NCBI GenBank assembly: GCA_038046805.1
Contig: JBBSVO010000002.1
Span: 1 to 64,000, forward strand
Reading direction: 5' to 3'
Length of the DNA stretch: 64,000 nt
From: Candidatus Micrarchaeota archaeon
GTDB taxonomy: Archaea > Micrarchaeota > Micrarchaeia > Anstonellales > Bilamarchaeaceae
Shown: in pieces, positions 15,001 to 18,000 of the stretch
How the letters are laid out: each line of letters begins with the position of its first letter
Position numbering within the stretch: the stretch's first letter is position 1
Position numbers: made by a program

Positions 15001-18000
15001 AGTCCTTTGAGTGATATACTTCGTTACAATAACAAGAGGGCCTCCCTCTTTTTTCTGTTTGATTACTTTTTGTGCTGCTTCCTTCACCGCATCGCTCAAA
15101 TCTGTTCTCTCAAGCAATTCTGCAATCTCATTAATCCTTCCAACTCCTTCACAAACTTCTATTCCTGTAAGCAACGCATTTTCCAGATGGGTTTTTGTTT
15201 CAGTATCAGTAGCGGTGCGTATAATTTGGTCAAATCTCTTACTTTTCCATTATTTCCCAGAGTTTTCAATGCACCTAAACATTCGTTCGTAGTAACGTCT
15301 TGCATAATTATCCACCCATCCTATTTGTTCTGGGTATATCTTTTAAAGTTATGTTCTATAACAGGATATGGTTGTGATTAAGTAGAATAGCCCATACGAA
15401 CCAAATCCCAAATTTTTTATCTTTTCTTCTTCAACAGCGCACCGAATTTCGAAGCATTTATCCATTCGCATCCCATATCATTTGCGAAATTAAGCACGCC
15501 TTCATCAGCAGAAACAAGCGTCGCATCCAGTTCCTTTGCAAGAAGCACAAGTTCAAAATCCTCCTTGCTGTCTAGTATCCCGGTGCGCATCGAATCGCGG
15601 TATTTGTCCCGCAATTTCGCAAGTTTCATATCATTATCCGGACGATTATCCTTTGCGAATTCTTCCGCAAGTCTGAGTCCCTTATTTATGCGAATCCGCA
15701 CGTCCTCAACGAAATTGTAAAACACAGCCGCTGGCAGGTACATTGCATGCATATTAGGGGACCTTTTGCGAACCACAAGCTCAAGCTCATCGCAAGCCGC
15801 TCCGCCTGCAAAATTCCTAAGCTCATGAATCACCGATGCGGGCATGAAAAATTCCACGTTCTTCATTCTTGAAACTTTTTTCAGGAATCCCATAACTGCA
15901 GAAGGTGTGTCGGTTCCAAAATCCCCGCGCACATTCGGATTAACGAACAAACTAGTGTCTATTACAAATTTTTTTGAGTTTTTTGCCATATTATCATCTT
16001 TTTATATAAGCTTTATTAATCCTCTTCCAACCTCTGGTATGTTCCCTCCGAACAGGCTTGTGCTGGATAACACAAATGTAAGAGTTATTGTAAGCGCCAT
16101 AAGCGGGATAAGACATATGCTGAGTGTGAGCTGTTTCACTACTTTGCCGGATATGAATTCAGTTATCATAGAAGTTGACTGAATGTTTCTTTCTATCCAG
16201 GATTCCGCCTCTTTTATTTTTGTCTGGTCAAACATCCCGCTTGAGCTTAAAGGATTGTCTTTTAGCACTGGTATCGCGCACCAGTCTCCACTGTAATCCA
16301 GTACCATCAGATCAGTCACTATATACGAAAGCGGAAATATGAAATACATCCCTATTGCAAATGCCATAACATACGCTCCGGCACCGCGCGTTGGGGGAAA
16401 TGAACGCATCAATATTCCTGCTGGAAGAAGAATCGTAAGCGCAGTATATTTTACAAAATTTAAAATATTCACAAAAAGGTAGTATATGAATGTGTAGAAT
16501 GTTATTGCATTCGTAGTGTTTGATATTCTTTCGGTTACTGCCTTTACTGCAAATCCGGATGCGACTTCCGACATGAATATTTCGATATATGTACTTGCCG
16601 CCATTTCGTGCGGTATCGCTATGATATAAAGTGTCGTCATAGCGTTTTTCATACAATCTACCTTTGGTTTCATAAGCGCCTTTGTAAGCTCTATCATGGA
16701 AGAATCCGTTGGAACATTGTTCGCACCAATAGCCTGTTGGGATATGTCATTCATCACGCCCTCCATGAGCGGCTCCATTTCATTCAGAAACAATACGAGG
16801 AACAAAACCAGTATCACTGTTGATGCGGCGAAAACCATCTCGGCTTTTGCATTCTGCTCAAGGTTTTTCAGATCGAAATATTTTGAAACCATCCACAGGA
16901 TAGTCGCAGCAAACACTGATGCAATCGTTGCAAGGGCAACGGCGCCCATCCATTGCGGATCCGGAAGCGGTGCAATATTTCCTGCCAGAACACTCATAAT
17001 CATTACCTGACCTTTCTCATATCAGCCTCGTCAGGCTGCTTATGTCTATTTCTTCACCCATTGTCTTGCTTATGCCTTTTATTGCATGTATTATCAAAAG
17101 AATGTTAAATGCTGATGCGAGTCCGAGTATTATCACAATTCCTATCATCATCATTGGGAGTATGAGGGCCATGTACATCGCGCCTCCGGTTCCGCTTTTG
17201 ATCAGATTAACAATGAGATTTCCGGTAGAATATTCCTGAACAGGGCTTGGAGCAGAGCCTGGCGGTCCATTGTTAAGGTTTGGCGTAATCTTCGGGCCTA
17301 CCCCTACCCAGTTCTCCGCGAATTTATCTGCATTGAGCTTTGCCTTATCTGAAGTTATACTAAACACCGGTTTGGCATAAGCCTCCATATTTCCGATCGT
17401 TTCTTTTGCGAAATTATCTGTGGTTTCTCTTAATATCTCTCCGGTTATCACAGTCAAGGCAGGATATATGAACAAAAATCCTATTCCAATTGCAATCAAT
17501 GTTCCTCCAATCCGCCTTGTTGGCGTGAAGCACCTCATCATTATCCCGATTGGCAGATAATATTTCAAAAATCCAACTAGCGCGAATTCAAACACTACTT
17601 TCTGCGCGTAGTTTGTTATGAATACGATTGCAAGGAAATTTGTTGCCTGGTATAAGACATTTTTTATCGGGGCTCCAAGCCCTGCGCCTGGAGAGCTGAC
17701 CAGTCCAAGACCCAGAGGCTTTGAAAATATAGTTGTACTTGCAAGCATGTCAGCCTGCATTGCAAAGAAGTGGTTTGTGATCATTACTCCTATAATCGCT
17801 TCTCCATTGTAATTGAAAAAATCCATTGCCGAGCTGTACATGTTCCAATCCTTATGCGCCGATTCCGGGAATATCCACCCTACTTTTATTTCGCAGAATC
17901 TTCCGACCATGAATGCTATCGCAATTATTATGATTGCCGTGACAAAAAGTTCATTTACCTCGAATTTCGCATATGCGCTGAGCTCCTGGTTTCTGAACAT

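Follow-up and report, generated by a model that had tools for sequence, protein, structure and literature searches.

Protein-only RNase P in Bilamarchaeaceae genomes that appear to have lost the RNA-based enzyme

HARP is a protein-only RNase P that assembles into oligomers ranging from tetramers to dodecamers. The closest described counterpart of the gene studied here is Aq880, the HARP of Aquifex aeolicus and other Aquificaceae (7F3E), a PIN_5 protein encoded in genomes that have no RNase P ribonucleoprotein (RNP) and that carry tandem tRNA genes in need of a 5' cut. Proteins of the same family occur in the euryarchaea Haloferax volcanii, Methanosarcina mazei and Methanothermobacter, where the gene is linked to that of the RNA ligase Rnl3 (PMC12153264, in the portions available) and where HARP occurs alongside the RNP and can be dispensed with (available portions of PMC12153264, PMC10941002 and PMC12439589). 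According to the accessible text of PMC10941002 and PMC12439589, all HARP-encoding archaea retain the RNP; that of PMC6380272 names no archaeon with HARP that lacks the RNP proteins, and no HARP in the DPANN archaea examined there. In one of these three papers (PMC6380272, PMC10941002 and PMC12439589, of 2019, 2024 and 2025) the Aquificaceae are, as far as its accessible text goes, the only verified HARP-only organisms. Among archaea, Nanoarchaeum equitans has no RNP and no replacement enzyme, its tRNA promoters being fixed 26-27 nt upstream (PMC10100707, available part), and the type T RNase P of Pyrobaculum, which once escaped detection by standard searches, keeps a short RNA, Pop5, Rpp30 and Rpp29 (PMC13462272, available part).

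The archaeon studied here (genome G000) belongs to the Bilamarchaeaceae (family f1; f6 denotes a second family) and comes from groundwater that is not hot. It resembles the Aquificaceae in its HARP, in which the essential residues are conserved, in its tandem tRNA genes that would need a 5' cut, and in a genome where no RNP was found; unlike them it is an archaeon, one RNA and four proteins rather than rnpA/rnpB would have been lost, the losses recur among close relatives in which the RNP persists, and the substrates are rich in introns. It shares the HARP family and the ligase linkage with the euryarchaea, in which, unlike in G000, an RNP is present. Like N. equitans it is a small DPANN archaeon without an RNP, but its promoter spacing is variable and it has tandem tRNA genes and a HARP; of the components that type T retains, none was found. 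In our judgement G000 has quite probably lost the whole RNP (the RNA, Pop5, Rpp30, Rpp29 and Rpp21), leaving HARP as its tRNA 5'-end maturase, and on the sequence evidence HARP is likely to be the sole enzyme in this role.

A genome-wide survey's note had reported a full-length HARP of 190 aa in the window, the stretch of 64,000 nt analysed here, and this is indeed what the gene encodes (Table 1). Its product matches positions 1-202 of the 205 in the Pfam model PIN_5 (E = 5.6e-52) and scores 182 bits against TIGR03875 (cut-off, 95.3), and all its PDB matches (7/7) are entries named 'RNA-free ribonuclease P' (E = 1e-47 to 2e-39). The alignment with Aquifex HARP (7F3E) spans residues 6-186 of 190 (numbering offset 3) and places the catalytic aspartates D11, D140, D144 and D162 on Aquifex D7, D138, D142 and D160, and the spike-helix arginines R127 and R131 on R125 and R129. 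These six Aquifex residues are essential according to the available part of PMC8266387, the text of which gives D161 where the alignment uses D160. The Aquifex C-terminal helix (177-184), which is needed for activity, is covered at the sequence level, the alignment reaching residue 186 of the query and about 184 of Aquifex. Among 31 HARPs of family f1, D11, R127, D140, D144 and D162 are invariant and R131 is at least 90% conserved, and dN/dS between G000 and its sister G098 is 0.03. The gene is intact and under purifying selection, and the protein itself is an ordinary HARP. DNA contigs from two further studies (runs X8 and X9) cover the gene without differences; an RNA run (X15, share 0.15) placed four short contigs on the 64-kb stretch and none on HARP, contigs being unable to show absence.

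The RNA ligase gene that the survey had placed 2 kb from HARP is of the Rnl3 type and convergent with HARP, at a distance of 2.0 kb. Linkage between the two is a known genomic partnership (PMC12153264, available part), and the ligase adjoins HARP in all of the other RNP-less f1 genomes (11/11) and in 8/9 of the RNP-bearing f1 genomes examined. The ATPase gene lying between them is probably unrelated to HARP. Just upstream of HARP, related membrane proteins form an array at window positions 16002-21957 and beyond, and two members tested gave no Pfam match.

Table 1. Features of the window around HARP and at the Pop5 slot
Feature	Position	Strand	Basis
Rnl3-type RNA ligase	12319..13407	(+)	Pfam RNA_ligase and Lig_C; TIGR01209, 289 bits
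AAA_14/DUF4143 ATPase, between ligase and HARP	13565..14821	(+)	Pfam
HARP, protein-only RNase P, 190 aa	15417..15989	(-)	ORF; PIN_5, TIGR03875 and PDB matches
cutA, left flank of Pop5 slot	45907..46218	(+)	Synteny
Empty Pop5 slot, 36 nt between cutA and purE	46219..46254		Synteny with relatives
purE, right flank of Pop5 slot	46255..46692	(+)	Synteny

Library models detected no RNP in G000, in agreement with the survey: the best match to the RNase P RNA model RF00373 reached 9.5 bits (E = 0.94), the Pfam models of Pop5, Rpp29 and Rpp30 gave no match at E <= 0.1, and that of Rpp21 gave 17.2 bits at best. Because such models might miss a divergent lineage, we built further ones from relatives (29-30 sequences each, run unfiltered and in six frames, the protein models on G000 only). 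The best E-values were 8.9 for Pop5, 4.4 for Rpp29, 0.58 for Rpp30 and 1.3 for Rpp21, and a HARP model, as control, recovered its G000 gene at 315 bits. The protein set searched in f1 consists of Pop5, Rpp30, Rpp29 and Rpp21, the shared protein L7Ae standing outside it.

A divergent RNA that escapes RF00373, which the survey's note had raised as a way to refute its claim, was sought with further RNA searches, all of them negative in G000. The family RNase P RNA profile reached 5.7 bits at best, as compared with 36.8 bits for the weakest held-out relative. Since nearly all G000 tRNAs carry long introns, we also ran an intron-tolerant scan, in which the best G000 score (45.4) was at noise level (reversed-genome maximum, 45.5) and the controls (34/34) scored 75-227. 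The type T model RF02357 found no match in G000, G058, G072 and G127, and 17.9 bits in G064. A scan for pairs of conserved motifs returned 25 pairs in G000 with up to three mismatches in each motif and none with up to one in each; both motifs were found at up to one mismatch in 46/49 of the loci tested, the three misses being L183, which was not scanned, and genuine RNAs that either exceed this number of mismatches or failed to match. Only one CR-I-like 15-mer has no more than one mismatch, and it sits inside a coding gene.

Three of the missing genes have recognizable positions in relatives. In 15/15 RNP-bearing genomes with both flanks in view, SUI1 and uS17 have Rpp29 between them; the corresponding gap in G000, described as empty by the survey, is 190 nt long and contains no Rpp29 match, and in 9/12 RNP-less f1 genomes the spacing is 11-19 nt. 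The pop5 gene occurs between cutA/Obg-like GTPase and purE/Trm61-like methyltransferase in 22/29 mapped family loci, in 10/29 directly between purE and cutA, which is where G000 has its empty slot. Rpp30 follows eL15 in 26/30 of the relatives' loci; eL15 of G000 is followed by an unrelated 127-aa ORF (Rpp30 score, -1.1 bits). The loci mapped are those with the highest Pfam scores, genus g2 being over-represented among them. For the RNase P RNA itself synteny is weak, with an SRP54 neighbor in 15/30 relatives and varying orientation. Incomplete binning does not explain the absence of the proteins, because all three slots are assembled and empty, with no scaffold gap near any of them.

The pattern extends well beyond this genome. 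HARP is present in 89/99 f1 genomes, and in 12/99 (G000, G098, G052-G059, G064 and G072; 67-93% complete, from four genera) neither the RNA nor Pop5, Rpp29, Rpp30 or Rpp21 was credibly detected; all 12 carry HARP. The remaining 87 each retain two or more RNP components (RNA over cut-off in 81, Pop5 in 80, Rpp29 in 83 and Rpp21 in 81), and single components are absent in 4-7 of these 87. The genus g5 is RNP-less throughout (8/8 genomes). With the family RNA model, the 11 other RNP-less f1 genomes yielded no credible match, the weakest control having an E-value of 1e-10. Weak RNA matches were rejected in G064 (18.3 bits, none of the conserved motifs), G057 (12.3 bits) and G127 (9.7 bits), as were 'Rpp30-like' matches of about 590 aa, which represent a paralog (model positions 7-145) that also occurs in G089, G091 and G094, genomes that have a real Rpp30 as well. 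The relatives that the survey's note had named behave as it described, and its extension of the pattern to the sister species and further genera stands; the range it gave was too narrow, for the loss reaches four f1 genera (12 genomes) and three genera of f6.

RF00373 also finds no RNA in 6/87 f1 genomes that keep RNP proteins; among these six, G063 has an RNA fragment, and G082 and G097 are negative with the family model too. RNP proteins without a detected RNA, as in G082 and G097 and also in G065, G076 and G078, could stem from a gap in the assembly or mark a genome partway through the loss. Where present, the RNase P RNA of the family measures only about 200-230 nt (loci L033-L062 and L184-L202), and in many copies P15 is followed by insertions similar to the repeats of the tRNA introns; the family Rpp30 has only about 150 aa.

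In f6, 5/10 genomes (three genera) show the same loss, all with HARP, as judged from the RNA, Rpp29 and Rpp21, the Pfam Pop5 model being blind in all ten f6 genomes. Rpp21 is lacking in the five and found in 4/5 of the RNP-bearing members. In the latter (G150, G165, G166, G265 and G273; 5/5) RNA and Rpp29 are present without a credible Pfam Pop5 match, and either their Pop5 is divergent or their RNP is Pop5-less, as proposed for Nanoarchaeota Nst1 (PMC4919917, available part).

Across the phylum (301 genomes at least 85% complete; the tallies include two unpublished genomes, G125 and G259, and no claim depends on either singly), HARP occurs in 65 genomes, namely in f1 and in 7/10 of f6, and nowhere else. 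Rpp29 is missing in 22/301 (two of them, G319 and G324, identified by elimination), that is in 14/65 genomes with HARP and 8/236 without. RNase P RNA was found in 0/14 of the former; among the latter, one has Pop5 and the other seven have the RNA (E <= 4e-21). Complete RNP loss is thus seen in 14/65 HARP-bearing as compared with 0/236 HARP-less genomes, HARP being confined to one clade, so that these points are not independent. All 17 RNP-less genomes (12 in f1 and five in f6; bins of 67-93% completeness, none closed) carry HARP, and 13/92 RNP-bearing genomes of the two families have no HARP match, including whole lineages such as g18 (0/3) and g30 (0/2). Three states are found across f1 and f6, namely both enzymes, RNP only and HARP only; no genome was found with neither.

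Rather than once, the RNP was lost at least three times by approximately unbiased (AU) tests, and probably six times. The tree was built from 15 operon proteins (2082 columns, quick LG+G4, 32/41 taxa), and the best tree needs six changes: in g1, in G072, in G064 with g5, in G127 with G204, in G241, and in G163 with G232. On it, G064 with g5 is sister to the RNP-bearing g3, and G163 with G232 to the RNP-only G265; the starred branches of the 32-taxon tree force at least four losses. AU tests on 22 taxa constrained the f1 losers, the non-g1 losers of both families, G072 with G064 and g5, and the f6 losers to be monophyletic. A single loss in f1 was rejected (p = 1.7e-4), as was one clade for the non-g1 losers of f1 and those of f6 (p = 1.5e-46). 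The tests did not reject monophyly for G072, G064 and g5 (p = 0.083) or for the f6 losers (p = 0.217), and six is therefore the count on the best tree rather than a proven number. We read these changes as losses and not gains because Rpp29 is present in the outgroups and it is implausible that five unlinked genes were regained. In the HARP tree, G072, g5, g3 and G064 fall into the same grouping again, which suggests vertical inheritance of HARP in these lineages. As the survey's note had argued, the losses post-date HARP, since HARP is widespread in f1 and present in genomes that keep the RNP. HARP and its RNA ligase neighbor would have been present in the f1/f6 ancestor, making the two enzymes redundant, and the descendants would then have kept both, the RNP alone or HARP alone.

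The presumed substrates of HARP in G000 are heavily interrupted. Nearly all tRNA genes contain one to three introns (19-146 nt) in the D-loop, the anticodon arm or the T-loop, and many of these introns share one repeated motif (contigs C2-C11, e.g., C3:116338-116592 and C9:12249-12453). ARAGORN finds only two tRNAs without intron search, and its output at relaxed thresholds was swamped by noise; only four Rfam tRNA matches exceed the cut-off (G085 also has few, 14). Our set of 29 genes combines 26 kept from the 34 loci of an intron-aware profile (eight being dropped as ambiguous or spurious) with three known ones. A TATA-like box, found in 25/29, starts at a median of -37, as compared with -31 for the RNase P RNA genes of relatives, which served as calibrator (box in 14/30). 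Its position varies, with 20/22 at -34 or beyond; RNP-bearing relatives show -33 to -42 and five other HARP-only genomes have medians of -35 to -38. A box farther upstream than in the calibrator implies that the leaders are a few bases long, like those of RNP-bearing relatives; we estimate about 2-13 nt, typically 6, and a 5' cut would be needed. Tandem tRNA genes are separated by 52 nt in G000, by 25 nt in G072 and by 3 nt in two pairs of G241, leaving hardly any room for a promoter in G072 and none in G241.

The promoter fixed 26-27 nt before every tRNA, as in Nanoarchaeum, was not found in G000; G241 comes close but has tandem pairs. In this f6 genome (0.5-Mb bin, HARP-only) tRNA promoters cluster at -31 to -33, with a median of -31.5; its tRNAs may be nearly leaderless, and the genome is possibly midway to the Nanoarchaeum state. 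In G058 (L290-L309) and G265 (L400-L429), a G+C-rich hairpin repeat replaces the TATA box directly upstream of several tRNA genes.

HARP-only genomes do not consistently show the base that marks Aquifex tRNAs. An A at position -1, found in 38/44 Aquifex tRNAs (PMC12439589, available part) and described as an adaptation of A. aeolicus, not shown to be required, is not enriched, occurring in only 4/29 tRNA genes of G000. By group it is present in 77/164 in HARP-only genomes (seven genomes), 39/81 in both-enzyme and 11/35 in RNP-only genomes, and in 50/116 over six RNP-bearing genomes pooled. Among seven sister comparisons two gave p of about 0.04 and five did not, one of these in the opposite direction. 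These counts leave out tRNA-His and 38 ARAGORN calls that did not pass an acceptor-stem check, and they contain three G265 rows displaced by a single base. Selection on HARP is likewise not clearly tighter in HARP-only pairs (dN/dS 0.018-0.078, n = 5) than in both-enzyme pairs (0.016-0.126, n = 5), the ranges overlapping.

Several other explanations of these genomes can be weighed against this evidence. As in Nanoarchaeum, the tRNAs could be leaderless and need no RNase P, with HARP retained in a different role, such as one shared with the RNA ligase. N. equitans shows that such a state exists, and it would fit the pyrimidine at -1 in 25/29 G000 tRNA genes, the tight boxes of G241, which resemble the leaderless calibrator, and the lack of a phenotype in HARP knockouts of two euryarchaea (PMC12153264 and PMC10941002, available parts). 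We consider it unlikely, for the boxes of G000 are farther upstream and variable, like those of RNP-bearing relatives, the tandem tRNAs of G241 and G072 leave little or no promoter space, and the RNP was lost in none of the 236 HARP-less genomes. Another nuclease might instead trim the leaders, with HARP as an accessory, an explanation we hold to be no more probable and for which no candidate enzyme is known, none having been searched for. It would account for the missing A(-1) co-adaptation and the lack of a clear tightening of selection on HARP, and some HARPs are inactive in vitro (PMC12153264, available part); against it, HARP is retained in 17/17 RNP-less genomes, as compared with its absence from 13/92 RNP-bearing ones.

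That an RNP persists in G000 but is too divergent to detect is very improbable in our view. The type T enzyme provides a precedent, the RNA and Rpp30 of the family are already short, and introns hide most G000 tRNAs from standard tools; however, type T keeps Pop5, Rpp30 and Rpp29, the very genes with empty slots in G000, the dedicated RNA searches were negative or at noise level, with the lone CR-I-like motif in a coding gene, and five components would need to have diverged and moved in several lineages. Least probable of all, we believe, is an artefact of incomplete bins: G000 is 86% complete in 16 contigs, and RNP-bearing relatives do miss single components, but the five genes are unlinked (at 206, 519, 642, 1376 and 1447 kb in the one-contig genome G051), the three slots are assembled and empty, and the genomes of g5 agree without exception. 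In the explanation we favor, in which HARP has taken over 5' maturation, the protein would act as known HARPs do, oligomerizing so that one dimer grips the tRNA elbow through its spike helices and a neighboring one cuts at +1. Because many G000 tRNA genes have introns in the D- or T-loop, splicing would probably precede this cut. As a counterpoint, four bacterial HARPs failed to cleave pre-tRNA, and HARP is slower than the RNP (PMC12153264, available part).

We found no report of a HARP-only archaeon in the literature, the search leaving most subscription papers outside, and a term search of two supplements of PMC12153264 returned no Micrarchaeota or DPANN entry. The HARP-only state, previously described only in a few bacteria, would be new for Archaea and would have arisen there repeatedly. 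The 17 genomes contradict the rule that HARP-encoding archaea keep the RNP, on account of which archaeal HARP has hitherto been treated as a non-housekeeping protein. With somewhat less assurance, we think that these are the first archaea in which the ribozyme was displaced by a single protein, some six independent times in two sister families and without A(-1) adaptation, here acting on intron-interrupted tRNA elbows. If so, they would constitute a replicated natural experiment on the replacement of an RNA-world catalyst by a protein, in which sister pairs that keep or lose the ribozyme allow one to ask what permits the loss: changes in the enzyme, leader length or mere redundancy. E. coli can serve to produce and assay the 190-aa HARP of this uncultured organism.

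Two further features were also recorded in G000. An SRP RNA at window positions 59777-60027 (-) has the bacterial large SRP family as its best Rfam match (66.3 bits), and C11:38417-41995 encodes a cysteine-rich repeat protein of 1192 aa with a hydrophobic stretch at its N-terminus.
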